DNA of 60,656 bases, filler included, from Sphacelaria rigidula (taxonomy: Eukaryota), in NCBI GenBank assembly GCA_964200075.2. It is 10 parts of 10 records of this genome, joined end to end, with 100 filler letters (N's around TTAATTAATTAA, not from the genome) between each part and the next. Parts side by side here need not be neighbours in the genome. Positions count along the whole stretch, not along the records: positions 6,077 to 12,052 come from CAXNAA020023069.1; 9 more parts are not named here. One strand, given 5' to 3'. This document shows, piece by piece, positions 249-46,800 of this stretch; position 1 is the first letter of the stretch, and the number at the start of each line of letters is the position of its first letter. A program made the translations under genes and the position numbers. The notes under the pieces are model-generated. The model did no database searches. It was not told the DNA's origin and saw nothing but the letters and a program-made list of their open reading frames with translations.

Positions 249-564
249 AAACGTTTTTTCGGTGTTCGAGATCCTTTGTGAGTGCCGTGTGGTGCGGTGT
301 GTTGAGTAGTGAGGCGGGCGGTTTGGGGCCTGTTTGTGCTCTGCTGCTTGACAGCTTTGTTCGCTGGTTTGGTCGATCAGTTAGTGCGCGGGATGGTTGG
401 ATGGGTGCTTGGTCGGTTAGGTTTTGCACATTATGAAGTGATGACTAGACAGGACACGGATACCTCGTTGAAGGGAACTCGAAAAAAGGCCAACTCGATT
501 GGTTTGATTGATTGATTAACTGATTGTCGTACTTTAACTGGTCCCCCAGTGAACCAGCCATGGT

Positions 565-681
565 GATGATCCACATGATCCATATGATGGACGTGTCGTG
601 ATCCACATGATGGACGTATCATGATCCACATGAACGACACGTCATGATCCACATGATGGACGTGTCGTGATCCACATGATG
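565..681 (+). repeat. 23-bp minisatellite (TGATCCACATGATGGACGTGTCA)n, left part
   Basis: About 5 tandem units. The array resumes at 1606-1680 after an insertion. Confidence 0.9.
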
Positions 682-1605
682 CGAGCTGGGCCGGCCATCA
701 GTGATTTTTAAACGAAGAGTGGAGATGCTGTTGGCATTTCGAAGAGTCGGGCGCTGAAATTTTGACAATACATTTTTATTTTCAATCCGCGCAACCCTGT
801 GAGGGGTGTCACCGAAAAAACAAACAAACAGGAAGTCAGAGCGGGTTGAAGTTTCTGCAAAAAGAGGGAAAATGCTCAAGTTCCTAAAAAACATGATGAA
901 AACGATGACAACGCTCCGGCACATACGGGCACTCGCGTTAACCACATCCTTGTGAAGTCTCAGCTAAAAAATACGTGAATTGGGCTTAGCGTCGCACTTC
1001 TTGTGTAACTCCGGTGGTCAACCTGATACAACACCCTCAAATTACGCAGGTAACGAGTTCGAATCCCGACACGATAACAACTTTTTTTGTGCACGCTAAT
1101 CGTGCATAGTCTGTCCTACCTTTGGGTTGCAAATTGTCTCGATATTTTGGTGACGGTCTTGCTTTTGGGGGGGAGGGTATAGCGCAGTTCCAAGTAGTAC
1201 TTCTCCCTCGTGCGGTGATATACGATAGTTGGCTGGGAAGTTCTCTCTCATCATGGAGCTTATGACGAGCTTGATGCCGTATTGCAGCACGACCAGTGTG
1301 CTGTTGCCTGGGCATGTCGGGTGTGCGTGTGCCTATGCGGCGCAACCGACTATCGTAATTTCACCGCATTTTGTGAAACGAAATGTCTCCGGACACGTTG
1401 TCACGCAATGGCAAGATACGTACCCTTTACTTAATACAGTACAATAACGTCATCGCCAAAACTGCGCCAATCAAGCAACGGCGGTGCCGTGTGTTACTAG
1501 GTTAGTCTGCAGTTCACAGCGATATGCTCAAGTCGCGCTGATTTGGGAAACTTGAGAAGTTGTAGTGCAGAGAGAGACTGTAGGATTTACTGCCGGCCCA
1601 GCTCG
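682..1605. mobile_element. Non-autonomous DNA transposon with 14-bp TIR CGAGCTGGGCCGGC, inserted into the minisatellite (probable TA target)
   Basis: Perfect inverted repeats at 682-695 and 1592-1605, flanked by TG/TA. Removing the element restores the 23-bp unit. A related copy lies at ~16741-17259 and a TA+TIR end at ~18072-18088. Confidence 0.8.
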
Positions 1606-1680
1606 TAGACGTGTCATGATCCACATGATGGACGTGTCATGATCCACATGATATACGTGTCATGATCCACATGCTAGACG
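1606..1680 (+). repeat. 23-bp minisatellite, right part
   Basis: About 3 units of the same GACGTGTCATGATCCACATGAT repeat. Confidence 0.9.
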
Positions 1681-2423
1681 TACCCGAGAAGGAGATATAG
1701 AACAAGTCGGATTTCGTTCGGAGATCGGAACATCGGACCATCGGGACGATTGTCGTACTGTTGGATCAGTGCACCTTGTGGAAAAAGCTCGAAAGTGTAC
1801 AGCCACTGTTGTTTTGTCACTGTTGGAACGGGGCTGAAATACTACACGTCATTTCAAGTCCTTGGCATCACGCATTCATATACTCCTTGAAAAGTCAGTG
1901 TACAGGTTTGGGGTTGGGAGAAAAGACGAAAACCACAGGTATACTTATCTCTTATTCCGCCAGAAACAGGCGTGCGGCGCTTTCGGCTAATCACGTGACT
2001 GTGAAACGACCAGCCTATGCTACCCGCGTTTTCTTATGTACGCGATTTGGTGGAAATACGTGCAGGTGTGCCTGGATCTGTCGGGTTTTTTTTTTTTTTT
2101 TTTTTCTTTGACCTTATTTTTGTTTCCTTGCCCGTCACTTTTTTTTGTGTTTGTTTCTTTNNNNNNNNNNTTTTTTCGTTTTCCTCCAGACGGGGTGTGG
2201 GGGCATTACGTGCAGGTGTGCCTGGATCTGTCGGGTTTTTTTTTTTTTTTTTTACCGCGACCACATTTTTGTTTCCTCGCCAGTCACTTGTTGCTGTGTT
2301 TCGTGCTTTCTCCCCTCCTCCTCGTCTCGAACGGAATGTGTGATCAACGTCGATGGTCAAATGACTCAAGGCAACCAACCAATGAGTACCCCCGCCCCCC
2401 CCCCCCCCCTTCGCAACAAACAG

Positions 2424-3959
2424 GTTTTTAGATAAGCTTATTAAAGCCACTGAGGACTTAGACATGGAGTCATTCTCCACGCACTGCTACGAATACGACC
2501 AGGTGAGTGCAACGTTTTGTTTTTGTTGCAAAAGAAACGGTCCGTCCTCTTGGCGCACTTGTTTGATATTATATTTTTGGATGTTGCACGCTATTAAGAT
2601 CATAAATAGCTGGTCCTCGAGGAATCCAACCGTGATCATTGTCCATTATCCATTATCCGCATCGTGCAACGCACCCAAGTTAAACACGCTGATTTACTGG
2701 GAAACATCAATGTACTGGCCGCTGGCGCGGCCAATTTGAACTATACTGGCAAGAGCAGCCAGTTCACAGTCCTAGGAAAGTTGGTTTGCAACATGGGTTG
2801 CGATAGTGCACGGTATCAAACAGTATGAACAAGCGCTGTTTGTCGGCATATGTCGCGTTCGAATAACCCGTCGCTGCTTTCGACGACGAGTTTTAGTGAG
2901 TTTTTGGGGAAGAAACGGCCCAAAATACCCCCCTCCCCGCATTGTAGCATGACTCTGAAACAGTAACTGATGCATGACTGTGCTGTAGCACCGTGAAACC
3001 GCTGCAGCGGCAGCGTCCGTCTGGCAGAAGATCGAGCAGGGAGAGGTTTTCAAGGGTCGGACAAGTATTAATTTATCTGAAAATTATTTGGTTTTAGTGT
3101 AGTTAATTCGACTCGTACGAATCAATCACCTCGGCTTTATTTTCAGCGTTGCAACCTGGGTACACGCAGCCCAGACACGTGGAATGGCACAAACGTTGCG
3201 TGGATACCCCTTGGACCAGCGGTCAACGTTTTTCTCCCTTTTGGGCAATCGGGCCGAAGAAATTGTTTATTTGGTGATTCGTTGTCGTGAGCTCTCGTCC
3301 TAACCGTGGAGGTTTTGCTGCACAAGACTTGAGTTTTAAGAACGGCATTCTTTTTTTTTTTTTTCCTGGTGTAACACTCACAAAAAATGCGTATGCGTTT
3401 CCCTCCCCTCCTGTGTTCGTGGGTTCGGATGGCTTGACCTGAACGCTGAACGCGTAGACGTGAAGACAAGTGGGATTTGATGACAAAATGGAGAGGGATG
3501 TATTACCTTCTTCAATTGCTCACATTGTCACTGTCACTGTCGGGTATTGACGTATCCCCGAGAAATTCACCCGTGGTCATTGGATACGAGATGGGCGTGC
3601 CGGAGGTGAAGGAAGAGCGGAAACATGAGCTATTAGTGAAGGAAACGTGAGAAAGCAGAGAGCTGAAGAAAGGAAGACCAGACAAACGGAGTAATGAATA
3701 AACTTGACGCGACGAAATATTTGGAAACGAGTTGATGTGGAGGCGAGTTATAAGCGACACCTGGTGCTCACGCCATGTGTGTGTCCATTTTCCCTCCCCC
3801 CTCTTTCTCATTTTTTTTCCTCTCCTTTTTTTTTTTCTTACACAGATTTCGAAACTCGACACGTGGAAAACGAAAATGTGCTTGATGACTAAGCGCGGTA
3901 TTAGGGCTGGGGCGGGGCCAGACGAAGATGATGAAGAAGATGATGTGGACTTGACATGA
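2424..3959 (+). CDS. NAPA: Alpha-soluble NSF attachment protein (alpha-SNAP/Sec17), last two exons, 5'-partial: 2424-2502 and 3846-3959
   Basis: Spliced translation FLDKLIKATEDLDMESFSTHCYEYDQ|ISKLDTWKTKMCLMTKRGIRAGAGPDEDDEEDDVDLT* matches the alpha-SNAP C-terminus pattern (EYD-x-ISxLDxWKTxM...acidic...DLT). Splice sites are canonical (cag|, |gtgag; pyrimidine tract + cag|) and phases are compatible. Confidence 0.88.
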
Positions 3960-5025: not shown

Positions 5026-5910
5026 AGAGATGGGCGCGATATTTGGAACGCTTTTAGGAACGTTCGTAGCAAAAGCAAAGGTTTGGGTTGGGTACGAAGT
5101 GAGACGGGAACGACAGACAGCTCGGTGCTTGAAGTCCTGACTTGGGAGCCGAGGTTACTGCTGTTCCCTTGTTTCAGTGACCCGCGTGTGTTCCGTTTGA
5201 GTCGAGAGTCGTCAGCGTCTACATGCTACTCCTCTCGTTACGCTCCCGCGTAGCCCTTGGCAGGCAACGTCCTTTGATAAGTGTGTCTACGAGTAGCTGG
5301 GCCCCGAATCATCATAATCATCATCAGTACACCAAACAAGAGCGCGGAATTTTCCCGCAGACAGCACTCCTGACCACGCCGTTTGTCCTCATGAGCGTGT
5401 ACATCATCTCCACATGACGTATTTACCCCATTTTTGTGACCCACGGAGCCCTCTCATCGCTAAAAGCGATCAACCATGGCGGAGGTGATTATCCCACCAC
5501 ATGTTCTACGGCAAGAAATATCCCGGGGATGATGGCAAATCGTACCCGAGGTTTGATGTCGAGGCGTTCGTATTCGTCAATACCCTGTACACGTTCCCGA
5601 GGCAATGCCTGGAGATGAATGTATGGACGGGGCATACCTTGTCCCATTCGCTGTAGTGGCGTCCGTATCAATCCCCCCTTGGGCCGAGGAAGAACCCAAA
5701 ATATACGTGTGTGTGGTAGGCGGGGGGGGAAAAGGGGTATACACCTCCTTGGAACGTCTGAGTTATTACACCCCCCCTCCCCCCCTCCCATGTAGTTGAA
5801 TTATCCAGAGGTAACGGTGAAATCCCCTCATGACGACTTTTCCGACCGCGATCTCCTTTCCATAACACTAGATCCCCACCCTCCCGATCGGATCGTTTTT
5901 AATGGTCGAA

Positions 5911-5976
5911 AGGGGGGGGGGGGGCGTACTCATTTGTTGCTTGCCTTAGTCGTTTGACCATTGACCACGCATCCCT
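5911..5976 (-). repeat. Family A short dispersed repeat, reverse copy at contig end
   Basis: Near-exact reverse complement of positions 3-65. Confidence 0.9.
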
Positions 5977-6076
5977 NNNNNNNNNNNNNNNNNNNNNNNN
6001 NNNNNNNNNNNNNNNNNNNNTTAATTAATTAANNNNNNNNNNNNNNNNNNNNNNNNNNNNNNNNNNNNNNNNNNNN
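5977..6076. other. Artificial contig linker (44 N + TTAATTAATTAA + 44 N). Identical linkers at 12053-12152, 18129-18228, 24205-24304, 30281-30380, 36357-36456, 42432-42531, 48507-48606 and 54582-54681.
   Basis: The same 100-bp spacer, with stops in all six frames, recurs every ~6,076 bp. Intervening contigs are 5,976 bp then 5,975 bp, i.e. a size-sorted concatenation. Confidence 0.98.
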
Positions 6077-6315: not shown

Positions 6316-6495
6316 GCGCTGCTCTATCTACGGGACTTGAAGACCAGTAGCCTGCAACGTCAAGACTGCCTCACGGCGAAACACTCCGTGGCGGCTCGAC
6401 ATCAGGCGCTGCTCTATCTACGGAACTCGAAGACCAGCAGCCTGCAAGTTCAAAAATACCTCACGACGTAACATTCCGTGGCGGCTCGACAGCAG
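6316..6495 (+). repeat. Two tandem 90-bp repeats
   Basis: 6316-6405 and 6406-6495 both read GCGCTGCTCTATCTACGG...TCCGTGGCGGCTCGACA. Confidence 0.85.
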
Positions 6496-6616: not shown

Positions 6617-9366
6617 ATGGTACCCTCATTTGATCCTATTGCGGTGGCTTCTTCCATGGCGCCTAGGTCGGAGACGATCGACCTTTCGCCAACCCACTCA
6701 AAGCGGCACGCTTTCGACGTTCAACACACTGCCATGGACGTTGCCTCTGTTGGAAGTCCTCACTCTACAACTTCTGGTAGTCCAACGTGCCGCACCTCGT
6801 CATCTGGTCCCGAAACCGTGGTCGAGGCCATGATTTTGGCTCTTCAGAACTCCGCCAAGTCTTCACCTGGCTCCGCTGACGATCCTGGTACAAATCTTGT
6901 CTCGGCACTCAAGACGTTCTGCGATGCCACGCTACGTACTCAGACACGCCCCTCGTACGCGCAAATTGTCCGCGGGGCTCAACCTACAGAGATCGGTGCC
7001 GCACGTCATGACCCCCCAGTCGCCACTGCGCGGTCTATACAACCCCGGGGAGGAAGCCAAGATAGAGATCATTCTCGCCCATCTTCCGCTCCCTATGGAA
7101 GGGGGACCCGCGCCCTCCGCCATCATAACTAGACGCCACGTGAGAGGCAAGACAACAGCATCCATTCTCACGGGGGTAGCCCAGGGCACAGTCATCAATC
7201 CTCACATGGTTCTAGACGATCATCCACCAATAGCCATACAAGTGGTCGCGCTCCGTCCCTTCGTGACTTGCAATGCCGCCAACACTCACGTGATGACCAC
7301 ACTGTGCATGCGGACGATGTCAGAAATATCGTTTCTGATCTATCATCGGACCCAGCTTCCTCGATAGAGAAAGCCAGCGACAACTCTTCCTACGAGCCCC
7401 GACGTCATCATAGATGAGCTCGAGCTAACCGCGATGTCCCATCCCGCTCCCCTGCCGCCACTATCCGCTTGCTCCAACGACAGACTTCAGATCTGCAACG
7501 TTCACTCAAGCAAACTATGGATTTCTCCAAGACTTCGCCCACCAAATCTTCGGCAACGACTGCGGCCACTGCGGCAACGACTGCTGTCCCTGCCGCGACC
7601 ACTACTGCTCCGGCCACTCTCCCTGTCGTCCCGAGCGCCACTGCGGCACCTTCGGCCGCTATGACGACCGCCCTTGCCGCCGCCACTGCCGCCGTCGGCG
7701 GTGCCCACACCGATGACAGGTCTCCGACCGCTGTTACTGCCGCCCCTGCCGCCACCACTGACACCGTTGGCGGTGCCCATACCACTGACAGATCTCCGGC
7801 TAGGCCACAATCCTAGCCGCAGCTAACCGAGGAGTTCTGCCCCACGGGCTACCCTGTGTACCTTTTCATGGAACACGATAGAGAAGCGCAAAACCGCATC
7901 ATCACTCGTTACCGAGCCACCACCCCGGTACCGGTACTACCGGCCACCACTCCGGCGCCGGCACCTGCGGTGACCACACCGGCGCCGGCAGGCGCGGTGC
8001 CGACATCTCACGACGTGTCAGATGACCGCGCCGCCGACGAGAACGCGATCCGCCTCCTCCGTTATGATTTCACCACGCGGCAGGTCAATCTTTAGAGAAA
8101 CGTGGACACCGTCACCGCCGCTCACTCCGCTGCCGTTCGGGCTAACGCCGAACACCAGTCGTTCTTTGAAGCCAGCCAACGCAAGGCTGCGGAGCTTGCG
8201 GCCCATATTAACCGGACCGCTGAGCACGCAGCATCCGCGACGACTTTGCTGAACGACCATCAGGCCGCTCGGGCCCGCGCAACGTCCCTCCACGATCCGC
8301 AGAATCCTCAGCGATCCCCCGCAGCCTCTCCGTCATCGGGCCCGGCTTCTTCATCTGCGGGGTACCGTATTTCCCGTAAGACGGAAGCCGCCATTACCCA
8401 CACAACGATCGATGATCAACCCCGTCTGGCCCTTTCCCCTCACGAGGTCACTTGGCTAGTGCATACTGTGCGGGACTTCTCTGCCGACTTTTCGGTCGAC
8501 AACCCTATCCAAAGTTCCAGGGCCGCTTGGACTGCCGTCCATCATGGGGTTCTCGTTGCCTTGGGTTTACATCTTGACCAAGGCGCACGAGTTCCGGACA
8601 CAGATCCGCACGCCCTGACGCTCGCCCAGCTCGGGGTGCATGCGCAAACTGGCCCCAACAATGGTGCCAGTACCTACAACAGGGCAGCACGTAGCCTTTC
8701 GCAGGCCTTTCGAAACGCTTTTCAGTCGGGCACCTCCGTTGACGATGATAACAACAATGACAATGACACCTGGACTCCGGCCACCGCGAGTTGTCGGTCG
8801 CCAAAACACCACCACGACAATGATGACCATCAGGGCGGCGGACGCGGTGGTCGCCATGACGGTTTCGGATCCTCCAGTGGAGGACGAAAAGGATCTAGCT
8901 CAAGACGAGTGGCTCGGTCCAAACATCATACGACCTGGAAGCGTACGGGTCCCAGCTCGTCGGACAGCTCTTCCAGAAACTCCCGCAACAGGATATGGTC
9001 ATCAACGGACCCGCCGTCGGTCACCTCGATCAATATCAAGCAAGGAACACCTCGTTTGGCTGATGTTTCCTGCGAGTTACTAGGTTTGTCTGATACTAAT
9101 GACAAAGGTCGACTTTTGTCTTCGACCTCGCCCCGGGCTTTAGCTGCCGCCGCGACTAGTCAAGAACAGACTGCAGCTTGTGAGGCCGCAGCAGCTGCTA
9201 AGGCTGAGGCTTCTCGGGTAGCAGCTATTCAGAGAGAGTACATCCAGATGGATATTAAGAAACTTTGCCATATTATAACCATGCCCGCAGTGGACAATGA
9301 GAACTCGGGACAGTTTACCTCGGGTCTAATTCACTCCATCCGTCGTACTGTACGAAATATTCCACA
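6617..9366 (+). pseudogene. Long decayed low-complexity ORF (possible retrotransposon gag/ORF1-like), truncated by the TIR element at 9367
   Basis: ORFs 6617-7132, 7469-7816, 7856-8095 and 8102-9388 are all in one frame, separated only by single stops (TAG 7130, TGA 7415, TAG 7814, TAG 8093). The product is Ala/Thr/Pro/Ser/His-rich with no introns. Family assignment is a guess. Confidence 0.5.
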
Positions 9367-10328
9367 CCCTGGACAAAACAATATCTAATATATATATATA
9401 TATTGCCCACTCAAAATATGTCGACGCGTTGGCTGGTCAAAATATATAGGGCGAGCAATATGATGGCACGAGAGAGGGTCAATATATATTGTGCCATCAA
9501 TATGTCAAGTCTCGTGACATGCAATGTACATCGACCAAACAATATGTCACGACACGCGCCACCTCAATATATTTTGGCCGAGCAACATGTTGGTGCGGTA
9601 AGGCGTTGGTATATATTTGTCAAGTAATATATTGGCTGCCGCACGAGGTCAACATACATTGATGATTCAATATATTCAACACCCGAAGAGCCAATACATA
9701 TTGCCGTCCCAATATGTCGTGCGTTAATGCGTACAATATATGTTGGGCGGACAATAAACGAGGGAATGGATGGTCACAATACATATTCGTGGAGCAAAAT
9801 ATATTGATTTTCAGCACTTAGATTGAAAAGTGTATTGGAATAAGTATGGTGGGCAATTCTATGTTCGCGGGTGCTATTAAAAGATGTATCACCACATGCC
9901 GGAAACGCTCAATATATCCCTCCGCGAGCGTGTTAAATATATACTGGCTGCACAATAGCTATGCGATGAGCGTGCGCAATATATATTGGAAAAATATTAC
10001 TTTTGCATGGTTTGCGTTCAATATCTATTATGGTAACAATATGTTACGTATCGCTTCGACTCAATATAGATTGACACTTCAATACATGCGCGGCTGGCAT
10101 GCACAATATATATCGAATGTTTTCTTCCCGGAGCAAATACATGTCCAATATATTTGTCATGCATTACTTCACGATCATGACACGAGAAATATATGTGTTT
10201 AAAATATATGTTGTTGCTTCCATGTCTCCAAGGACATCTGAACACAAACTATATTGAAAGGACAATATTTATGCTGTCTCCAATATAATGTATTGGTATC
10301 ATATTGGAACATATTGTATTGCCCAGGG
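9367..10328. mobile_element. TIR-bounded non-autonomous element containing a 42-43 bp periodic dual-box array
   Basis: Left end CCCTGGACAAAACAATAT (9367-9384) and right end ATATTGTATTGCCCAGGG (10311-10328) are 16/18 complementary, flanked by CA/TA. Confidence 0.8.
9438..10160 (+). repeat. Array of CAATATATATT-N7-CAATATG-N17/18 units with unique spacers
   Basis: Unit starts at 9438, 9480, 9522, 9565, 9607, 9650, 9692, 9734 and 9777, then 9935, 9977, 10019, 10062, 10104 and 10146. Confidence 0.85.
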
Positions 10329-10523
10329 TATAAGCAACATAGCACCGGTGACCACGGGGGTACCAAAAGAAGCATATCGACCTGCGTTTTATGTCGTCGT
10401 GATGTTTACCAAAGATATGTTGCATGCTGTAAAGGGGATGGGCGGCCCCGTTCCGGTGGTCAGATAGGTATCAGAGGGCATATATAACAGGTCGCCTCTT
10501 CTGCCACCATATTTTCTGACCAG

Positions 10524-10555
<32 letters not shown>

Positions 10556-11257
10556 TGTATCATTTCACTTTTTTCACCACTTTTGCCGAGTTTCCTCAGG
10601 CGGCAAGGCATCTTATCACGCGCTTTCTTTTGCGGTGTATGAAGAAGGTGCAACGGTACATTACCTTTCGGGTTTGGGTGTCATCTGATACCTGTGGCGC
10701 GTGTTCTGGCCATCGAAAGTCGCCCACACTGGCTCTTTTTCGCGGGGTGTTGATCCCAAACCACAAAGGCCTCTTCAAGATGATGGAAAGCTTCGAACAG
10801 GAATCCAATCAACAAAAGCCCGTTCATAGCGGGGTATTTCGTTGCGTTCTCGTTGAGTCGGGAGCACGAAGACAGCGGTTATGCAGCGAATATCACGAGA
10901 ATATGAAAGCAAAGCACTTGAAAACAATTGAACATTGTGTTCGCCTTAGTCAGCAGCAAAAACAAGACCGTGCAATGAGCCATTGGCGAGTTGAACAAGG
11001 CACACACGTGGGCAAAGGTCCTCACTGTGGGTCAGCTGTGTTGGACAAGCGCAGGGGGTGACGAAATCCCCATGATCATGCAATCTGTAACAGAGAGTTC
11101 CCTCAAAGGATGCACCTGTGAAGTACCGGCGCAGGAATGTCCTTGTGACAGGGATGACAGAGATGTCCTTGTGACAAGGATGCATCCCTGCACAAGCACT
11201 TTACAGAGGAGACATTAAGAAATGTACGTAAACAATGGTTGGTACTATGGAGATGCC

Positions 11258-11402
11258 ACCAACCCCAACGCTAACCCTAACGCTAACATCGACCAAGGCA
11301 TACCGAGAACTCTCGGGCAAGGGGGGTGCAGTTGTTTAGGTGAAGCGTGCGTTGTGAGAGCTCAAGTCGACGCCTCTGAGCCGATTTTGGACCAAAACAC
11401 GT
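11258..11402 (+). repeat. Dispersed repeat headed by degenerate telomere-like (CCCTAA/CCCCAA) units; copies at ~38513-38650 and ~17600-17725
   Basis: Shared core CAAGGCATACCGAGAACCCTCGGGCAAGGGG...TGCA...GAGCTCAA.TCGAC...CCGATTT...CAAAAC.CG. Confidence 0.75.
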
Positions 11403-12220: not shown

Positions 12221-12303
12221 AGGGGGGGGGGGGGGGGGGGGGGTGTACTCATGATCATGCATGCTATAGTCATATGACCATTGACCTCGCATCCCTACAA
12301 AGC
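12221..12303 (-). repeat. Family A variant (subfamily B) short repeat; also at ~30206-30275(-) and 42532-42574(+)
   Basis: Shares GGGATGCG-x-GGTCAATGGTC-N4-GACTA...GAGTAC(C)n with family A but has a different middle segment. Confidence 0.75.
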
Positions 12304-29659: not shown

Positions 29660-30761
29660 AGTAAACAAGGACACCAAAGAAATGGAAACGAGAGCAGAGA
29701 AAAACTGCAACACACGAAACCTACCAGTGGAAACAGCGAAAGTATACGCGGGAAACCGTACGGCTGAACAGGCTGCTATCGGACGGGTACAACGTTCCTA
29801 CACCTTACACCTCACAACAACAGAGGTGCCCCCCTTTTATCACTCATCTATCGTTATGCTCATTTTGTTTTTTCTCGTCGTACTCGAAACTCTGCTTCTT
29901 CCCCGGCAATAATTCGTGGTCTTCGGGGGTCAAAATATCTCTCTCCGGTACAATGGTCAAATGACTTAGCCAAGCAATAAATGAGTACGCCCCCCCCCCC
30001 CCCCTCCCCCACACATGACACACCTTGGGCATACCCGCGATCGTCAAGGCCACGTCTTGATATGTTCGAGGTCAAACACATTCCAAAACTCAGTAATAAG
30101 AACCCAAAATTTGGTGGATGAAGCATAGTAGCATGAACAACGTTGGTCAGCTTGCAGGCGAGCTGGGAGTGCATGGCACAGGGAACGAGAAATTAGCCGT
30201 CCCCCTGGGGGGTGTACTAATGACCTTGCATGCCATAGTCATCAGACCATTGACCTCGCATCCCTACAAAGCCGGGACGGNNNNNNNNNNNNNNNNNNNN
30301 NNNNNNNNNNNNNNNNNNNNNNNNTTAATTAATTAANNNNNNNNNNNNNNNNNNNNNNNNNNNNNNNNNNNNNNNNNNNNCTTGCTGGCATATGTGTGTG
30401 ACAGAGAACAGTAGTAGCGGTGACGGGAACATTGCCCTATTTTTTCAACATGGTTTTCAGCGCACAGAGGCACGTCCTGTCCAAAAGGAGAGGCAGAGAG
30501 AAATCGACGTTCGCGATGGCAACAGGCGAGAAGAGACACGGAATTTCTCCGCACGCCGATGCTCTGGCATATGAAAAAATTGGCACATGCTGGCAAGATC
30601 AAGGACGCGAGTCTCTCGAGCGATAGTGGTAATCACCGAGCGGGGACACACAAAGGGCACGGGCAAGGAGCTTCCTCTCTGTCGTTGCTTCTCTCTCTGT
30701 TGAAATCGTCATCGACGCGCGTATACACCGCATTTCGTTGGGTGCACCTAGCCAGAGTTGC

Positions 30762-35128: not shown

Positions 35129-38071
35129 CCTAAAGTTGGTGACTCTTCACTTCGTAACCTTTCAGGGGGCGATCCGCGCGTCTCAGGGGCCACGGAAAAG
35201 CAAAGGAGGCCGCGCAAACTTTGCGGATCCACTCAAAAGTGCAGACATCGTCTGTGTCACTTTCCTCGTGATACGTAGTACTGCGCTGCTGCGCTTTTCT
35301 CCATCTATAGATTCTGTGCTTACAACGACGGATCCGAGGTGGTCGCGGGGTGGGGGGTTTTATGAATGGGATACTTGCGACATTCCGCAACGGAGAATAC
35401 ACCTCACGTACTTCACATGCGATGCGAGTGAAGAACGGATCGCGCCGAGGGGTAGAAAACACGAACAGTTGCGTCGTTTGCAGGAGTCGTCTAAGGGGAG
35501 CCCCAGCGTCATTTCGCTGTTGCAGCCATGGAGACACTGGCCATGTCGGTACCATCCTCTTGTGTAACACCCGTGATGCATGATTTCAACACGAGATGAC
35601 ACCAGTTCCGTCGCTTGACTGCATTGCCCCGTGCTTGCCGTCGATCGCGCCTTTTCCGTCAGGTGACCGCAGGGATGGGCGCCGAGGGGTGTCGCGGATG
35701 ATGTAGATAGATTCAGAATGGCGCCAGGCTGAATACGGTTTGCGTCCCTACCTATGCTCAGCGAATTGGTCACCCGTGTTCGAAGCGTTGATTAGGCATT
35801 TGGTGTATATTTCTGCGGCGTTTATGACGGAGTCGGTGAGGGAGGGTCTACCGCGTGTCCTTTGCCGTGCGATTATGCGGTAGCAGGCGCACGCAATAGC
35901 CCGCTATCGATCGACGCCGGAGCGGAGTCCGTCCTGGCGCCGCCACTCAAAATGCAGGTCGCAGTTGTTTTTGTCATGGCTACGGTTAAGGGCTATGTGG
36001 AAATTATTTGAAGAACCAGGTCCCTGCTGGCGACAGTGAAGGCAGGACATAGGTTTGACTTCTTCTGGAAGTGCCATGTCGGGTATATCGTCTTAATTCA
36101 TGGTGCTTCCGACGGGGAAAAACAAAAACACCGGCAAATCTCCTTTCGAACCAACGCTGGCGTGAGCGGAGCGCGCTTCCATGCTCCGACATACGACCGG
36201 ACTGGAATGTTCGAAAACAAAAACGTGCAGTTGTTCACCTCGTCTCAGTCCCCAAAATATCCCCAGACACCTCACGGGGCAGCGTAAAAACAAATCCTGG
36301 ACACGTAAGCCCCAAGATCGAAATTTGGACTTTTTGAGGGGCGGGGGGGGGGGGGGNNNNNNNNNNNNNNNNNNNNNNNNNNNNNNNNNNNNNNNNNNNN
36401 TTAATTAATTAANNNNNNNNNNNNNNNNNNNNNNNNNNNNNNNNNNNNNNNNNNNNGTCTAAAATCGTGAGGAGCCCCTGAACCAGACAAAATTTCGCGA
36501 AAAAAGTGCACCCCTACCGTAGCATTGCTCAGTGTAGCTACCTGCTGCCGGGCTGTGGTAAATAAGCGAATAATGGTGCGCCCCCCTTCCCACCCAATCC
36601 CAACATGCGATCACCCCGCTCATTCGCTGCGGGAGGCATGTTGATGGCGTGGACGCCAGCTGAGCAAACGACCTGACTACAACGAGAAACCCAGTATAGT
36701 ATGACCCTTGGCGGCAACTTGCGTGGTATAAATAGCCCAGCACGACGCGTGATCGATGATGCATGGATGTGCGCGGCAACTGATGGGCCGAAGATTCAGG
36801 ACAGGTGATATATATGTGGGGCGAAGCAGCAGGAAGAAGATTCTTTCGTTTTAAATTTTCGAAAACAACGTTTTTAGATAGATGGAGCGATGCTTCTGCA
36901 GGGAGCACTCGGCATCAGCTTGACATTAGCTCATGTTGATAACATGGGCGCCAGAGGGCACGTCATCCGGCGAACCACCGTTGTGTTGCACTTGGGAGCA
37001 TGGTGTGCAGTGTGGGTAGCGCAGCACGACGCATGATCGCTGTTGCATGTGTGCACGCGATACGTTGACGAAAAAGAAAAACGCAATCGGTGCTGCAGAG
37101 CAGCTGGAAGATTTCTTCGTTTTACATGTTCGGAGACGAAAGACGTGGACCGATCGAACGATGCTTGCTGCGGAAAGCACTCGACGTCAGCTTGCCATGG
37201 GCTAATGATGATAGCATGGGCACCAGCTTGCTGATCGGCTGACGACGCGGCTACAACGAGCAACCCAGCATGCATGGTGTTCGGCAGCATGGTATGCGGA
37301 TGGCCACAAAAAACAAAGTAGCAATCGGTGCAATATTATATTTACAATACAACAGTGCATGTAGCATTCGATGAGAAACAAAAGAATACAGGTGGAAGTA
37401 AAAAAAATGGCTGAATTCGAGAGCGGGTCGAAATACGAAGTGGCGGCAGACATCATTGTGCATACGACGATGTTGCGATATTTTACATTAGTTCATCTTC
37501 GCAACAACAGCTCAGTGCGAGTTGGAATGTTGCGAATCTGTTTTGAATCTTGAATGGTGATACAGACAACAGTAGCAACAACAATGTAAAATACGTGTGT
37601 ACATGTAGACACAACAGTTGTATCAATCACTCGCGATCAGCTGGCCGGCACGCTGCTGCTCTGCTGCTGCTGCTTACCTACCACTACTGCACTGCTTCAA
37701 CTGTACCACTACCACCCACCCATCACTACTACTGTACTTGCTTCTTCCAACCGCGGGTCTGAGCAGGTAATTACCTGTGTGTTGTAATCCCTGAAAACGT
37801 CATACTCTACCGCTCTCGATGCATTTTGCTCACCCTTTTCTTGGTCTAAAGCGCTAAAGGAGCATACCAAAGTCGTTGCTGTTGAAAAGACGAGGGTTGG
37901 TATCATTGGTTCGGGTGTCAAGAAATCTGGGTCGACAAAATTAACACAGCACAAGAGGTGGCACACGAAGGGTAAACATAACCAACTGTTTGAAATCCAC
38001 TCCCGTTTCAAAGGTGCCTGGAGCAGCGGAGCAAGCCAGCAGCCCCAAGGCCTACCCCCTGGTGGCTAATC

Positions 38072-41000
38072 ATGGCCGGTGAGCAAAAACAACAATGTTG
38101 TACTATTGTGTTGAGCATCTTGTCGCAATGCATCGGAGTAGAGCTGCTTTCAGTGTGCTAATTTGCAGTAAGTCAGGTGGGGGCAGTTCGCCGGCTGGAC
38201 CGGGCCTGGCACTGTCCGCGCTTCACGACCAACTGTGACACGATCCGGTGTAGTACATACCCCGATGTGATGGCCCGTGGATCGCCTCAAGATAGACCGG
38301 GTTTGGAGGCACATGAGCGACTCCCGCGCGGATCTGAATGAGGCAACGACTATGGCCAGGCTGTACTGTCGTAGTACTGTATGATGCTCATGTACTGTTA
38401 CACCATCTGTCGGCGTCGATTCACACCCGGATACTCAAGAGTAGGGCTTACTTGATACAGAGGCGAGTTTGCGCGAGTTCGTCGTGAAATCATGGTTGAC
38501 CCATTCTGAATGTAACCCTAACCCCAACCCCAACCCCAACGCAAGGCATACCGAGAACCCTCGGGTAAGAGGTATGCACAGAGCACCCTAACGTGCGTCG
38601 ACAGAGCTCAACTCGACACCGTATGCACCCGATTTGAGCAAAAACGCAGGCTGCCCACGATGAGGGCACTCGGGACTGTCAGCTCTTCGAAGATCCGTAT
38701 GAGATCGTTCAACACTACCACCTGTATCAAGTGTGTTTCGACCGTGTTGAGCTGAGGACGAACTCGCGTAAACTCTACTGTCCGTGGGAGTTTTTCATTA
38801 TCTCAAAGCTCAATCGCGATGCACAGGGGAACTGTGTTCTTGCTCACCTAACTTTGTCGGGTGGAAAAGCGACGATTGCGTCGGCCGAAGATCGTGTTAT
38901 CGGAAATATCTCGTGATCTCGTGTCGCTGGGGTTCTTCGGCGTGGCAGGGTCTGCAACAACAAAAAACGAGTTTAAAAACTCACGTTTCAAGACCGGTAC
39001 CGTAGGGGATATACGGGATATGTCACATGAGGCTGTAAGAAATCCAATCGCCTCCGTTCTATCAATTGCGGTGGCCACCGCGCCGAATATGTTGGCGTTG
39101 AAAATAAAGTGTTCGTCGAGATGTCACAGTAAACGGAATTTTGTGGCAGTCGGTGCCACGCCTTGTTTCAAGGACAAAATCGAGCTTGGGTTTGTGATCG
39201 ACCCGGGCTATATATTCCCCGTAGCCTAACCTACGTTATATTCTGCGTATTTCTCAGCTTAGTGGCATCGCCCCAGTGAGTGCGAGGTATTTCAGGATGT
39301 TCTAGTGCAGGCATTGGTGCACATGACCAATTCACAAAAATCCTCGAGTGGCATAAGTGCATGTACTGTCAAGAATAGTATATGTCTTCGTACTCACAAG
39401 AGGCCGAGACCGTTCTACGACTTTGGCTCCGCGGGTCCTGGCCAATGTGCCCCTCTGTCTGAGGGCAAACAACCGAGCTTATCGATATTTTTGGCGGAAT
39501 CCGCCCCGACTCGGGCAGGTAGCTCATGCTGATTTCGAGGTACAGGTCATCATGGAGGACGAGAGTGATGTCATGACCCTACTCCACAGTTACGCCTTGG
39601 AGCATGAGGAGAGTGAGGTTTAAGTCTACAGAGAGTGCGGTTGCTCACGGTGAATGTTTGCGCGTGCTGCTGTTGATGGAAGTGCGTTACGACTGGTCAC
39701 GATACGTATTATTGGATCTTTGTGGGCCGGCCTCCCGGCTTCGGTAGCACATCATGATCTCCATACCCCGCGACTTCAAGTATGACTCGAGCCCTCAGCT
39801 AAGGCCTTCCATTCTAACTCCCGAAAGATCGCAACTGTCGCGACAGGGAAAATCGTCAGCGGGAAGTCGAGTCAAGAATACACTTGGAAGATTGAGTGAG
39901 CTGCAGGAAAATCTCGCTATGGGTGTCGAGCAATTGCACACGAGCTGTGCGCCATCAGCGCACTGCTTGCAACGAAACCTGGCACACAACAATATCACAA
40001 AGAACTTTTGACGTGGTTTGATTCGATTTTTCGGCAACCAGCGACCGATGTTGTGGGATCTGTACAGCACCGGATTGAGCTGTCCAAGATGCACACCACG
40101 AACGCCTTGAAATACCGGTAGGGGGGAAGACAAAAGCTATAGTATAATAGCGAGTTGTCAGTATTTACTTGACACTGCCCATGGTACTTGAAGGGTGGTG
40201 GTGAACACTTTTTGGTCATGTTTGAAAAAAAATAGGATGTTCTGTTGTAGTGCCGTAGCTGTTCAAATCACAAATAGATGTTGTGTAACCATCGATCGCT
40301 GTGTCGGTGTCAATGCTCCGCATCTCATGTTGCATACCCGTCGCCGGTCCGGGTACAACCAATAAAATGCAGCCGCCGGCGTACCGATCAAGCTCTTGCA
40401 CGAGGGGGAAGGGCACGGAGTCACCGTGGAGATGAGGAACGGGGAAATATACAGGGGGCACTTGAACGATGCAGAGGACACCATGAATTGTTTCATGACC
40501 GGCGGTGAGTGAGCGTATCTCGCACGTTTTTGGTAGGTCTTGTGGAATAGAGGGCTCCTACACGAGAGGAGTCACCGTGTGTTGTGTTGCTCTCTTTCGG
40601 TGCCTTATCCGACAGTACTGATTCGTGGCGTTGGAAAGAAGTACAGTCTGTACTTATCCGCATATGTGACGTATCGTCCCGCTTGAAAGGACTAGTGCAT
40701 TTGGCCCGAACTCGAAATCTTACTTGTGGCGAGGGACTCAGCTGAAGTTCTTGGCCGATAATTTATTTATGTTTCCCATGAGCACGACATGTAAATTCTG
40801 TGGTTTGTTGTTGTTGTTTTATTGCAGACCGGTCCCGCCAGCGAACCCCCTCTCGACCTCTCGCGGGAGACACATTCGATATCATGCAGTTGAACCGATC
40901 AAACAAGATAATTATATTTATTCTGTTCATAGTACATACTGGTGAAAGTGCGCGCAAACGGCGGTACGTTGCTGCTGATGAAGTACCTATGGCCGGGGAG

Positions 41001-41975
41001 ACACCGTTATCCCACACGTTCGTTCTATAAAAACACCTGACAAATCAGCGTAGATTTCATGGCATTACCCGCCAATTTCGCTGCCGTCAAAATTTTTTGC
41101 GAGATCACGGCGTTGCCCGTCAATTGTGAGGATACCCAAGAACACAACGTGGCAAAGCCTTCCCCGCATCATCTCCAGTTGGTAGATGAAATCCTTCGAG
41201 GAACGCCCACAGATGGACAACTTTGTCGATCAGTCAACCATCAGGCAAACATGACACCGATTCAACAGATAGGCACCGTGGGCATATCCGGTTTCATATC
41301 ACATTGTGCAGTGGTGGATGTCATCCGGCATCCCGGTACAGGCGTACATGTACACGGTCGATAACTTGGAGCCGGAGCGCCAAACGATTGCCCCTTCGCT
41401 TGTATTCAACCCGCCACCGCGTCGTTATCTCGGGTGTTGATACTTGACCATCCTAAATTCATCCTTCACCTGCGTCGGGTCTTGAGGTACCAGACGTGTA
41501 AAAAAAGGCAATACGGAAGGAAGTATCATGGCCATGTCTCATTATCCGCCGCGACATTCTTTTGGGGGGGTGTCAGCGCTCCCTCAATCGTCTCATTCTG
41601 CACACCGTACGGATGCTGGTATCTCAGGTGCTGATATGACAAATCAAACCAACAAGCAATCAAGCAACCGAAGCAACCCGTCGGCCAATCGAGCAACCTT
41701 TTTAATTCGGTCTCCGCTCTTGTGTTCGATGTTGCTGAATATCGTGTTCGACATTTATACTTCCCTGCACAGTGACAATGACAGCGAGGGACGGGCGAGT
41801 GAGCAAGCTGGAGCAGGTATACTTGCGCGGTAGCCATATCAAGCTAATTGTCCTCCCAGATGTGCTGAAAAATGCACCTGTGTTCAAGCCCGTACAGAAG
41901 ATGAAGAGCAAGGCGGAGGAATCGGGTGGCGGGCGAGGGGGGGGAGGGAAGAAGTCAAAGAAACCTCAAGCATAG
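38072..41975 (+). CDS. SNRPD3: Small nuclear ribonucleoprotein Sm D3, complete: join(38072..38078, 40373..40504, 41773..41975), 113 aa
   Basis: [85 protein letters not shown]... has the Sm1/Sm2 motifs typical of SmD3. Both introns are phase 1 GT-AG. The 7-nt first coding exon (ATGGCCG|gtgagc) is inferred. Confidence 0.93.
38513..38650 (+). repeat. Telomere-like-headed dispersed repeat, in SmD3 intron 1
   Basis: TAACCCTAACCCCAACCCCAACCCCAAC followed by the core shared with 11258-11402. Confidence 0.75.
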
Positions 41976-42321
41976 CAAACGCCCTAGCAGGCTAATAGCA
42001 CCAAGCAGGGCAGAGGGCAGGGCAGTAGTCTACGGGTTTTCCATTTGTGTGTGTGTGTTGTGTATGTGAAAGCTCTTGTTCGAAGAGTGCTGTAATGCAA
42101 TACTTGTGTTTTTTTTTGGAGATTGAGATGATTTTAGCTGCAAAATGTTCAAGTCAAGAACACGTCAGGTGGTCGAGCGCTCAACCAGAAATGTCGTTTT
42201 GAGACCGTGATCCAGAGGGGAGTTTTGGCGCTTGTGCCCACGTACATGTGTTCCAGGAGCACATGGAAACGTGGTCGGTTACGCGCATTCTTCCGCGTGG
42301 TTTGTTTTCTGTTGTTCCTGT

Positions 42322-42431
42322 CTGTGTTGTGTGTGTTGTCCCATTTATTCTGGGCACCAGTTTACACCTTTCGGTATAAGTGGGCGCATCAGCCGGGGTC
42401 ACGCAGAAGGAAGGTCAACACAGGAGCTTTT
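42322..42431 (-). mobile_element. 3' fragment of tRNA-derived SINE at contig end
   Basis: Homologous to 4924-5025 and the SINE 3' ends. Confidence 0.7.
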
Positions 42432-42579
42432 NNNNNNNNNNNNNNNNNNNNNNNNNNNNNNNNNNNNNNNNNNNNTTAATTAATTAANNNNNNNNNNNNN
42501 NNNNNNNNNNNNNNNNNNNNNNNNNNNNNNNGATGACTATGGCAAGCATGATCATGAGTACACCCCCCCCCCCCTGAGG

Positions 42580-42955
42580 ACATTTTTTCGAAAATTGTCA
42601 TGATTTTTTCCCGTCAACTTTGTTGCAAGAAATTGATCAATCAAGACTATTTTGACTTTTTTCTGTCAATTTTATTACAAGAAATTGATCAATGAACACC
42701 GACGAAAACCGAAAAGGCTGGTGGGCTTCGCGGGGTTTGTATATCTACTTCTCCTCCTTGCCCGCTCTGTCCCGATGACCTCAGATGCCGGACAGCATTT
42801 TTTCGAAAATTCTCCTGATTTTGTTTTCTTTCGTCAGTTTTGTTGCAAGAAATTGATCAATAAATACTGACAAAAACCGAAAAGTCTTGTAGTGAGCTTT
42901 GCGGGGTTTATATATTTGCTCCTGCTCCTTGCCCGCTCTGTCCCGATGGCCTCAG
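42580..42955 (+). repeat. Tandem duplication, ~170-215 bp period
   Basis: CATTTTTTCGAAAATT, CAAGAAATTGATCAAT, AAAACCGAAAAG and CTCCTTGCCCGCTCTGTCCCGATG.CCTCAG each recur. Confidence 0.8.
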
Positions 42956-43484
42956 GTCTCCATGTCAAGGATTTCTGTCCACGGCAGCTGACCGCATCCG
43001 CCAACGCTTCGGCAATAAACCAGGGGACGGATGGCTGGGTTCCCCCCCCCTCCCCCGTCCTCTCAAAAACTCAAATTTTCAATCTTGGGGCGTACGTGTC
43101 GACATTCGTTTTTACGCTGCTCACTGATAAATAGAATGCGATTCTCGAGAAAGACTACTTCAATGTTGCGGCTCCACCGAATTTTCAGTCGGAAGACCTT
43201 CCTCAATCCTCTTCGTGTCCGGGAGTTGGTTCCGCGAGACATGAAGCTGAGCGACTGTGGAACTGCCCCATAATAAGACAGAAGACATGCATCGGCATAC
43301 ACGACGGATTCAAATGGGCTACATCGCAGTCAAACGGGTAATAAAAAATAAAATATAAGGAGGGCCGGATGTATTGTTTCCGGATCGAAGAAGAAAAAGG
43401 TTGGGCGCCCACAGTTTAAACAGAAAGGACGCAACATGCCGTCATCATGACAAAACGATCACTGGAATGTGACATTTGTATATT

Positions 43485-43838
43485 GCCCGTCGCCCCGGTG
43501 GCTCAGTTGGTAACCTCAAAACCCTCTGACGGTTAAGTGGGTGCAGTCACACGATCTAGTATTTTCCCCACGTGATGCCCAACAATGGAGAGCGCCGATC
43601 TGTGTCGTATATACACAACATTCGACTTTACGGTCGATGAGGGAAAGGGACTGCTCCAGAACCACTCTCGCGATAAAAAAATAAGGCAAAGCACCGCAGA
43701 AGAAAGGTGGAGTACTGAAACAAATAAAATAAAAAAAAGTCGTGTGTTGGCCTTCCTCCTGTGTGACGCCCGGCTGATGCGCCCACATATAACGAAAGGT
43801 GTAGACTAGCGTCCAGAGTAGGTGGCATGACACACACG
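43485..43838 (+). mobile_element. tRNA-derived SINE (box A intact, box B region deleted)
   Basis: TGGCTCAGTTGG box A at ~43499; colinear with 59947-60303; CA-rich tail. Confidence 0.72.
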
Positions 43839-46800
43839 CGTATCATGTCATGAATCTCGGCTGACCCCAGTGTGCAGAACGAAAGTCTGCATTATGTGCA
43901 ATCGCGTGTAGCTCGGACAAAAAAACAACACACGCAAGTAATAATATTAACGGTCTGACACGTACATCCAGTTTGGCAAGATTCCAAGTTAAAGAATAGG
44001 ACCACAGAGCGAAACGCCGCCTTTATCTCCAACCATTGTGGTCAACTAGGTTGTTCATTCGGTGCTCTTCGTTTTTTTTTGCACGTTTGCCATGACATGG
44101 CGAGTGAGGAAAGAAGAATGAATAAAAATTTACGACATGAGTTCGCGGGATCCCGTTCGATCTCTCGAGTTTATTACATGCACACCGTTCACGTAACTAG
44201 TCACCTACATCGTTTTTCATGCCCCAGCTTTTACTCTCGCTCTCCCCTCGCCGCCCTCCGTTGTGCCCTTGTACTTATAAGCGTCACTAGTTACTGCCTA
44301 CTTGGCTTCACTTTTCACTCCGGCTCACCCTTTTCTTCCCTTTTCCTCGCTCTTCTCCCTCTCTCTGCCCTGCTTTGTATTCTCGTACATGAAAGCTCTT
44401 CAAAATACACGGTATGGTGGTGATGAATCCGTCAAAACGGACGTGAAGGTGTCGGTGAGCGACGCTGTTGTTGTTGATGATATATCTCGTAACTTCGACA
44501 TGCAAACTCTGAACCGCTACACCAGTTTTGCTGTCGCAGAGAGACACGCACAAATTACCGTGTGCATACACGATGTGCCCCGAGCAGACGCCCCCTCTCT
44601 TCTCTCGCCCCCCCCCCCCCCACTCTTTCAAGCAAAAGCAACATCCACACACACCCTGACAAACGCCTGCACAATCGAACCTACTGAAAACCAGGCACAC
44701 AAATAGTGTATACTGTATAGAAAAATATATGTCCCCCTATCATGCCTGAAAGTCCCCCCGCTCAACAAGTGACGTCATGACCTCGGATGGGACCATCCGA
44801 CGAACAGGGATTGTCGGCAAATTACACTCCTCCAGCACTTTTCTTAGCCCATGCGGAAAAATTGCGTGAAACTTTCCCCTTTTTTCTAATGGAGGACATG
44901 CACCACCCCTCACAATGTTAAACCACGTACGACACACTCACGCAAGACATACATTCGACGCTGCACCTGTTCTCCTCTACAGTACAGTACGCTCTTTCGT
45001 GTTCAATTTTTTTCTTTCATGTATTGTATACCCCCCTTCCTCTCAAGACACCTTGCACGCGCTCAGTCAAGCCAGGCAAGCGAAGGACAAAGAAAACGGA
45101 AAAACAAAACAAAAAGGGCGTTGATTGTCACTAGAGACAAAAAGAGTAATACCACTCACTAAAAGGCGCAACCATGTGGAGGTCAATTAACAAACTAGAA
45201 CTTTCACGAGAATCGACAGCAAAATGCAACCACAGCCACAGCCACAAATATAAATTGATGTATATCATACTCCAGTATTTTTTCTTGTTTATACTTATGG
45301 CACCTTCATTTAACCCAACATATTTTTGCTCCGTCTGCTGTACTTGTCTATCCCCCCCCCTTCCAGCAAACGAGTCAACAGCAAAAACAGCAAGCTACTA
45401 AAGCAGTGAGAAAGAACAAAATAGAACGAGACCTGTTTTCATCATTTTCCCCCGTTTCGGACGTACGTAGTACTGTATTATATGATACAAAACGACCTGC
45501 TGCAACCACCCATCAGACATCCCGGAAACATCCATGAAATAAAAGTCTTATTTCCTTATTTTAGCTCTACAGAGGTTGGCAAGGGGACAAAAAACAAGGC
45601 GAGAAACGAACAGAAAAAAAATCGTGACACCTCAAGGCACGGCCATACAAAGCATACATCCATATCATGCAACCATCTATAACGCTATTACATTAGAAAC
45701 CAGAAATTAAAACAACACACACACACTAGAGGAAAACAGTTCAACACAACCCCCCGAGAGGGGGGATTGGGGATTAAGGCGGGGGGGAGGAGGGCAGGGA
45801 GGGGTGTGATGGGGTGTGTGGGTAACCCCGTCTAAAAATAAGAAACGTGGTATCTATCAAAGGTGCACCCACTTACGACACATACATCACGACTATAGTA
45901 ATGTATTATGTCGAGCCCCCATCATGGTGGGGCCAAAATGAAACACGAGGCTGAACCGGCTAAAATGGGTCGATATTCCCGTTGAACGACTTCACAGCGG
46001 CCTGTCGAACGATGCACAGCGCGCACACACACAAACACACACACACACACACAGGTAGACAAGGTAGCGGGGAGAGGGGGGGGGGGAGGGGGGGGTCAGG
46101 TCAAGTCAGGTCAGTTACCAGATTAACGGGGGGGAAAATGGTGATACGACACACGTCCAATATATCTCTTGATCGGGGTTATCATGCATGAAAACATGCC
46201 AAGCCATGCCGTCGCTTACACTCCCACACTAACGAAAAAGCGACCGAGTTGATTTGATTGATTTTCGCACATGAAGCGGTCCTGCATAGACGTACTCAAG
46301 GTAAATAAAACTTAAACACTCGTTGAAAATAAGTGGGCGGGATACTCATTTGTTGCTCGCCTTAGTCGTTTGACCACTGACCACGCACCCCTTTCGAGAC
46401 GGAGCAGGGGGGAAAAAAAAATATAGGACAGAGTAGATCGAAATAAAAATTAGATGAACGAATAAACTAGAAACGGCCAGCCTCTGCAACATGTACAGAG
46501 AGGTTAATCCGGCAACTGAGCTTGGGCGGGCTGGAGGGAGGGGGCGGGGCGACGTAGGACGTGCGTGAACATGAACAACTGCATGCTCAGCCAAAACGTG
46601 GGCAAAGCAGTCGGTAGCTCTCTTGCTCGTTTATTCTTCCTGAAATCCAACTAGTCGTATCCTTTCCGGCGAACGTTCTAAATCACAGGCATCGGTACAA
46701 GTAAAATCAATTAACGAAGGATGACATATGTCATTCACCGACGACATGGGAGTCTCACGACGGGCTCGATCTACTTCGGACTAAAATACGGTTGATGCAA

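Follow-up and report, generated by a model that had tools for sequence, protein, structure and literature searches.

Window positions from about 9362/9366 to at least 10329 carry two short conserved boxes that alternate with variable spacers at a tightly fixed spacing. Here the window is the whole stretch of Sphacelaria rigidula DNA that was analysed, 60,656 nucleotides long. The balance of probability tips slightly towards reading this stretch as a single copy, old and decayed, from a non-coding DNA transposon family of very high abundance, with the boxes as helically phased protein-binding sites. Objects of this kind are ordinary, but the interior of this one is unusually regular, and the superfamily may be either a cut-and-paste MITE or a Helentron-derived HINE. 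The original prediction had offered two readings of the array, a phased protein-binding lattice in a mobile element and a transposon-borne guide array. The first remains the best reading on the contrast between boxes and spacers, the four-turn phasing, the presence of the box core in the terminal repeat and the copy number.

When the sequence is set in register, 17 units of 42 or 43 nt are found at 9395-10187, and together they occupy about 80% of the element. The order within a unit is box 1 CAATATATATTG, 6 variable nt, box 2 CAATATG and 17-18 variable nt. Box 1 is a 12-nt palindrome, and all 17 units lie in one orientation. Unit starts are 9395, 9438, 9480, 9522, 9565, 9607, 9650, 9692, 9734 and 9777 in the first set, and 9893, 9935, 9977, 10019, 10062, 10104 and 10146 in the second. 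The about 15 units in two blocks proposed originally are real, the 15 starts listed then being among the 17, and the fixed spacing holds as well, since all unit lengths are within 42-43 nt. The short spacer had been given as 7 nt; it is 6 nt when box 1 is taken as 12 nt. The features of the element and its surroundings are as follows.

7304-9361, plus strand: left neighbour outside the element, a decayed, truncated member of a multi-copy ORF family, with in-frame stops
9366-9384, plus strand: left terminal (or subterminal) inverted repeat ACCCTGGACAAAACAATAT, its inner 6 nt being the box core CAATAT
9385-9437, plus strand: terminal unit, box 1 grown to an (AT)8 microsatellite (9388-9405), then the box-2-like CAAAATATG
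9438-9818, plus strand: block 1, nine direct units of 42-43 nt, period 42.38 nt by regression
9819-9892, plus strand: inter-block stretch without boxes
9893-10187, plus strand: block 2, seven direct units, period 42.26 nt by regression
10188-10310, plus strand: right subterminal region with irregular box-like motifs
10311-10329, minus strand: right inverted-repeat arm, complementary to the left arm at 17/19
10330-10531, no strand assigned: high-copy stretch beyond the right repeat arm, entered by some other copies

Block 2 begins 11.73 units after block 1, which places it about 11 nt out of register. Its first unit (9893) consists of box 2 only, and box 2 is decayed in its last two units. Near the right end, box 2 is found inverted (CATATTG) at 10300 and 10310.

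The boxes and the spacers behave very differently over the 17 units. Box 1 has a mean pairwise identity of 0.617 against 0.316 in shuffles (z 28) and box 2 one of 0.521 against 0.337 (z 14), and in both cases 0 of 2000 shuffles reach the observed value. Compared column by column, the spacers are at chance, with 0.250 against 0.246 in shuffles for the 6-nt spacer (z 0.3) and 0.266 against 0.254 for the 17-nt spacer (z 1.4). Boxes that are 52-62% identical, spacers at chance and a unit length kept within 1 nt contrast with the even loss of similarity in a decaying tandem repeat. The spacers are indeed GC-richer, as had been claimed, with a GC content of 0.53-0.56 against 0.23-0.24 in the boxes. 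The CpG observed/expected ratio in the array is 1.34, and therefore the GC-rich spacers have not undergone methyl-C decay. In block 1 the AT content gives a power peak at 21.25 nt, the second harmonic of the period, with a value of 4.6 compared with a maximum of 2.7 in 300 shuffles; in block 2 alone the AT periodicity is not significant (1.9 against 2.1 in shuffles). The box words are concentrated in the element. Positions 9367-10328 make up 1.6% of the window and hold 18 of its 39 CAATAT occurrences, and the window count for the element is 15 of 19 for CAATATR and 2 of 2 for perfect CAATATATATTG.

The spacers had been described as mutually unrelated. This is true of their column-wise identity, but they share more words of at least 6 nt than expected, a weak signal. 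Inverted shared words number 15, compared with 5.0 ± 2.3 in shuffles (0 of 300 reach this), and direct shared words number 10, compared with 5.2 (12 of 300). Most of the shared words centre on CACGAG/CTCGTG, which occurs 4 times in the element against about 0.8 expected. The long spacers thus carry a weak third motif around CACGAG/CTCGTG.

The family is very abundant. Logan contigs of four runs were aligned to 8600-11100 at an identity of at least 80%, and 7,938 (X1), 7,013 (X3), 7,795 (X4) and 287 (X6) contigs were placed. X1, X3 and X4 are DNA runs; X6 may be RNA, and its array contigs are no proof of transcription. No run recorded as RNA contains the stretch. Summed word depth in the array bins (9440-10363) of X1 is 32,880-140,566, compared with 67.8 and 77.7 for exact-match contigs. 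The corresponding depths are 4,435-25,085 against 7.26 in X3 and 13,741-62,003 against 23.8 in X4. These ratios amount to about 500-3,000 copy-equivalents and are consistent across three runs from two studies, contig depth not being a true copy number. The copy number is about on the order of a thousand. A sensitive blastn search finds no second copy within the 60-kb window, and one copy there together with the high depth means that the family is dispersed.

Other copies can be aligned to this one over several units at about 83-88% identity, and the alignments take in the spacers. One contig covers 9692-9985 with 48 differences and 0 gaps, and others cover 9861-10142 with 49 differences and 0 gaps, 9415-9604 with 24 differences and 3 gaps, and 9715-9931 with 27 differences and 1 gap. 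Because boxes make up only 45% of the unit, an identity of 83-88% means that the spacers are common to the copies. Overall divergence among copies is 5-20%. Independently, a database ORF of 141 aa, found on a public contig of 722 bp, matches nt 9834-10034 in frame with 72% amino-acid identity, and this match covers three units plus their spacers. The spacer series is a property of the family and is not copy-specific. The spacers called unique in the original prediction are therefore unique within the element but common to other copies. Copies also differ by whole units. A 42-nt skip (9983 to 10026), corresponding to one absent unit, is present in all four runs, further joints among copies skip 83 and 84 nt, and P0004 has a partial unit duplication.

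The two arms of the inverted repeat (9366-9384 and 10311-10329) are complementary at 17 of 19 positions in this copy. This is moderately unusual, being reached by 2 of 200 dinucleotide shuffles of 9000-10700. In other copies the majority letter at 10322 is T, which brings the repeat to 18/19. As had been noticed originally, CAATAT lies inside the repeat, its inner 6 nt being the box core. On the left side, DNA paralogues of the flank end at 9362-9366 (four contig records), and the match to paralogous proteins ends at nt 9361 in all 8 of the 8 tested. These proteins continue past nt 9361 with conserved sequence, and the left end is a genuine junction. Their continuation is found nowhere in the window at E <0.05; since the left-flank homology is not resumed there, the empty site cannot be reconstructed. 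The left neighbour is itself decayed and truncated, so that the locus is a repeat junction and not a clean insertion. No Pfam domain is found in the left-flank family, and an assignment to Sel1-kinase was rejected because the long matches are low-complexity.

The right end is less sharply defined. Three X4 contigs pass the right arm, reaching 10348, 10486 and 10509 (X4 records 23 and 24 cover 10205-10509 and 10211-10486), and X1 depth right of 10329 is 37,000-54,000, inside the range for the array. No target-site duplication of at least 5 nt is found at the repeat arms; a decayed TA duplication, with CA on the left and TA on the right, is at most what the flanks allow. The description of the array as packaged in a TIR element is upheld by the genuine left junction and the 17/19 repeat, but not by the right arm, which other copies cross, nor by the flanks, in which a duplication of at least 5 nt is missing.

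The element codes for nothing recognizable. Its longest open frame, 126 aa from stop to stop, has no Pfam match and is accidental. In the 60-kb window, 113 stop-to-stop ORFs of at least 110 aa were scanned with Pfam, giving two matches above the curated cut-off (a zf-C5HC2 exon and DUF7869) and three weak matches below it, a SNAP fragment among them. No transposase, Rep/helicase, Nop, RuvC, HNH or viral gene is found among the 113 ORFs, which agrees with the earlier remark that no effector gene is visible. No binding protein is seen among the window ORFs, and no autonomous partner with the same ends lies within the window. The 19-nt terminal inverted repeats, the high-copy dispersed copies and the absence of coding capacity fit a MITE or other non-autonomous TIR transposon. 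Of the shared precise ends of such an element, the left one is sharp at 9361-9366, and the right arm is the one crossed by the three X4 contigs.

Copies that run past the right arm would fit an element moved by rolling-circle transposition. The family could be a Helentron-derived non-autonomous element of the HINE/DINE-1 type, with the 19-nt repeats as subterminal inverted repeats, and we regard this as unlikely but worth serious weight. HINEs are described as having inverted repeats set 2-4 nt in from the 5' end and 38-60 nt in from the 3' end, together with a palindrome near the 3' end, TT as target, a microsatellite, tandem repeats in the centre that make up to half of the element, and huge copy numbers (PMC4067079). 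The element here is like these in its microsatellite, in the repeats that fill its centre, in its great abundance and in having T where it is inserted, and its inverted repeats may likewise sit slightly inside the ends (PMC4067079). The (AT)8 tract and the array would then be the typical microsatellite and central repeats, and a short palindromic 3' tail would lie beyond the right repeat. The left-flank homology ends in TT (9360-9361) and the repeat begins 4-5 nt on, at 9366; (AT)8 comes immediately after the left repeat. The palindromes CACCGGTG (10344-10351) and GGTACC (10359-10364) lie 15-35 nt beyond the right repeat, and a T run is found at 10387-10390. However, the repeat of 19 nt exceeds the described 12-15 nt, and contigs of other copies reach 160-180 nt past the right repeat, beyond a tail of 38-60 nt. 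The 3' stem-loop is unsupported here, as the fold of 10311-10420 is matched by 175 of 200 shuffles (z +1.12), and no Rep/helicase ORF or partner is found within the window. The central repeats of HINEs are also ordinary tandem repeats and not conserved boxes with randomised spacers.

How the boxes came to be conserved can be judged from the differences between copies. The sample is a selected one, the 40 best-supported of 620 difference rows, and it contains 22 positions within units at which this copy departs from the majority. Nine of these 22 (41%) fall in boxes, which are 45% of the unit, and the majority letter is the box consensus at 7 of the 9. The AT-only boxes are therefore not slow-mutating. 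Boxes have been lost at an ordinary rate since insertion, so the boxes of the founder were cleaner than those seen here. As low mutability does not explain it, the contrast between boxes and spacers must predate the amplification and have arisen via selection in the active lineage on the boxes and their spacing. The pattern suggests that the boxes are probably functional sites.

The same counts bear on a functionless origin, in which the array would be an old 42-nt minisatellite within a repeat, its boxes only seeming conserved via slow AT mutation or slippage renewal. Such an origin is improbable. Box 1 is microsatellite-like and has grown to (AT)8 at 9388-9405, and the whole-unit differences between copies (42, 83 and 84 nt) with the partial duplication in P0004 point to slippage or unequal exchange. 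The share of differences that falls in boxes is, however, the one that length predicts (9/22, in the best 40 of 620 rows), and CpG is not depleted. Units stay at 42-43 nt despite randomised spacers, and the spacers are at chance while the boxes keep their identity. Units of a satellite are alike over their whole length, which is not the case here: TRF returns 9 rows and no period-42 array, as expected for units that are less than 70% alike.

For a non-coding transposon with phased binding sites, the geometry of the array is informative. The period of 42.3 bp is about four helical turns, and every palindrome is therefore on the same face of the helix. We expect that the boxes would bind the mobilising protein of the element, through a transposase DNA-binding domain that would sit as a dimer on the palindrome. 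Box 2 would be a half-site-like 7-nt box paired with each palindrome. The array would load many protein copies cooperatively, like the subterminal repeats of other transposons. The lattice probably arose when a 42-nt module was duplicated in tandem within an ancestral element, and selection during the active life of the family would have retained nothing but the boxes and their spacing; this copy would then have decayed evenly once inserted. The box core in the terminal repeat and the flipped box 2 at the right end fit the logic of transposase-bound subterminal repeats. Several observations stand against the transposon reading. Besides the missing target-site duplication of at least 5 nt and the right arm passed by the three X4 contigs, the left-flank homology is not resumed and the inverted repeat is only moderately significant (2/200). 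The 17 units also point the same way, compared with the mirror-image binding sites usual in cut-and-paste elements.

Subterminal repeats of CACTA and hAT elements are many short motifs in unrelated sequence that serve as transposase or accessory-protein sites, some of them arranged as inverted dimers. Examples are the 12-bp TNPA subterminal motif of CACTA (En/Spm) and AAACGG of the hAT element Ac. Their motif spacing is irregular, and their sites are mirror-symmetric at both ends. The element described here is like them in that a short motif is repeated amid unrelated sequence, and their inverted dimers are comparable to the palindromic box 1. It is unlike them in that CACTA... termini and the hAT 8-bp duplication are not seen. 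In the hAT element Herves, the transposase binds a short subterminal motif, CG/AATTCAT, at both ends (PMC3143072). A closer likeness is found in the Emigrant MITE of Arabidopsis, for which Lemi1 proteins are reported to bind cooperatively to repeated motifs that are the inner half of the TIR (PMC1636448). Like Emigrant with its pogo-like Lemi1, the element is high-copy and non-coding, and its box core CAATAT is the inner part of the terminal repeat (PMC1636448). In that report each end of Emigrant carries two or three subterminal motifs, compared with 17 dual-box units here, in a 42.3-bp phase and one orientation (PMC1636448). The element also differs from Emigrant in that a TA duplication is at most suggested by CA on the left versus TA on the right, and in that binding is predicted. 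No published description of the family was found in the literature, which is weak evidence, as sequence motifs are hard to search; the repeat library of the brown-alga genome papers may already contain it.

A bolder form of the binding-site reading, which we hold to be doubtful, is that the lattice is a protein-filament scaffold, on which a transposase or a host factor would assemble cooperatively, nucleated by the 17 one-face palindromes and their half-sites. If so, the genome would hold tens of thousands of sites with a possible role as sink, boundary or pairing element, and the architecture would be one not known from other transposons. Much less likely than such a scaffold is a eukaryotic array of unit-length small RNAs.

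The lattice might instead serve a host DNA-binding protein, for chromatin boundary or attachment, or might have begun as an iteron-like element by which a virus or plasmid was maintained, and have spread later; both are very improbable. With palindromic sites evenly spaced along one face of the helix, the array is reminiscent of plasmid iterons and of the EBV oriP family of repeats, and at 17 units per array a family of about a thousand would place tens of thousands of such sites in the genome. However, no viral or replication gene is found near the array among the 113 window ORFs scanned with Pfam, and no similar array appears in the scans of viral or metagenome contigs. In viral contigs the box pattern gives 4 loci, all single chance matches in AT-rich phage DNA with no array, and the terminal-repeat pattern gives 1 isolated match. 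In metagenome contigs a 21-nt box-plus-spacer word gives 0 matches, and a three-box pattern gives 2 loci of the same 29%-GC sequence, again with no array. The divergence of 5-20% among copies and the decaying boxes also argue against present-day host constraint.

The guide-array reading, a transposon-borne TIGR-like guide or small-RNA array producing an RNA of about 42 nt with two spacers per unit, retains hardly any probability and is rejected, because other copies share the spacer series, allowing for ordinary divergence, and the spacers match the window only at chance (at up to 3 mismatches they have 3 matches elsewhere in the window; shuffled spacers average 1.8 and give at most 5). An identical series in all copies was among the outcomes that the original prediction had set as refuting this reading. 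TIGR arrays are described as two alternating 8-12-nt repeats with two spacers, each about 9 nt long and at most 12, in 36-nt units that yield tigRNAs; both repeats have UG at the start and CCA at the end (box D / box C), and a Nop-domain Tas gene lies adjacent, in prokaryotes and their viruses (PMC12045711). What the element has in common with this description is the dual-repeat layout, two alternating short repeats with two fixed-length variable segments, and no other TIGR feature given there (PMC12045711). Here box 1 has 12 nt and box 2 has 6-7 conserved nt, and a unit of 42-43 nt contains one spacer of 6 nt and one of 17-18 nt. The boxes CAATATATATTG and CAATATG are without the UG...CCA motifs, the host is a eukaryote (a brown alga), and no Nop-domain ORF is among the 113 scanned. 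Block 1 folds slightly better than shuffles on the two strands (z -2.9 and -2.5), which is expected because the boxes are self-complementary. No Rfam match falls in the array; a search of 9000-11300 at E up to 1 gives three weak microRNA/RUF matches, all outside the array and far below gathering scores.

A guide-array-like layout can thus arise in an ordinary eukaryotic transposon, which calls for caution in pattern-based array scans. Two boxes and their spacing kept over 17 units would be a clean natural footprint of what a mobilising protein reads, and with the partner in hand the element would ease experiments on binding sites and phasing. The repeats of brown algae are poorly described, and a family of about a thousand copies is worth adding to repeat libraries.

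ORFs are sparse in the window. One of them, at 10549-11061 to the right of the element, has a single database relative, a Sphacelaria rigidula 'unnamed protein product' that is 75% identical. The runs that contain the stretch are labelled with one coded organism and with 'algae metagenome', and together with this relative they point to a brown alga or something close to it as the host. A repeat at 10532-11035 adjoins the element and is even more abundant than the array family.

The long spacers of the 42–43-nt repeat units in the element carry a weak third motif, CACGAG/CTCGTG. It is found in about half of the units, between 9463 and 10187, in both orientations and at no fixed position. The motif might be an additional binding site or a remnant of homology.

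Immediately to the left of the element, 7304–9361 is a decayed member of a multi-copy ORF family with in-frame stops. By depth, the family amounts to about 10–40 copy-equivalents (contig depth relative to exact single-copy contigs, not a true copy number), and it has no Pfam domain. The copy is truncated at 9361. Beyond this point, all eight paralogous proteins tested extend into a conserved C-terminal part that the window lacks. The frame of the truncated copy runs on into the element and reaches a stop at 9386–9388.

To the right of the element, the repeat at 10532–11035 is even more abundant than the element itself. Contigs of the DNA sequencing run X1 give summed depths of 125,000–420,000 along it, with a lower value (37,653) in the bin 10784–10867. 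This corresponds to roughly 2–6 thousand copy-equivalents. Differences at 10633–10654 and divergence beyond 11004 are common among the other copies. One ORF belongs to this repeat; it lacks a Pfam domain, and an unnamed protein of Sphacelaria rigidula is 75% identical to it:

10549–11061, ORF of 170 aa

Several other features lie elsewhere in the window. The inverted repeat is located directly downstream of the DUF7869 ORF. The two 23-nt repeat blocks have the same orientation, are about 1 kb apart and could represent the repeated termini of a different element.

567–709 and 1585–1704, two blocks of 3–4 tandem units of 23 nt, GACGTGTCATGATCCACATGATG-like
6316–6495, tandem pair of 90-nt units sharing 87% identity
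50964–51416, ORF with Pfam DUF7869 (E 2.3e-18)
51483–51771, inverted repeat of 139 nt, 93% complementary, loop of 11 nt

The top "repeat families" of the window are an artefact of N masks and not biology, being regularly spaced paired runs:

5977–6076, then every ~6,076 nt, paired 44-nt N runs (masks)

A short dispersed repeat, probably a small and abundant element of this genome, begins with a long run of G (or C) and then reads CGTACTCATTTGTTGC. The window contains at least nine copies, with both orientations represented:

16–65, 2352–2401, 5908–5989, 12238–12303, 29951–30000, 30207–30272, 46324–46405, 48024–48105 and 60572–60653, short dispersed repeat
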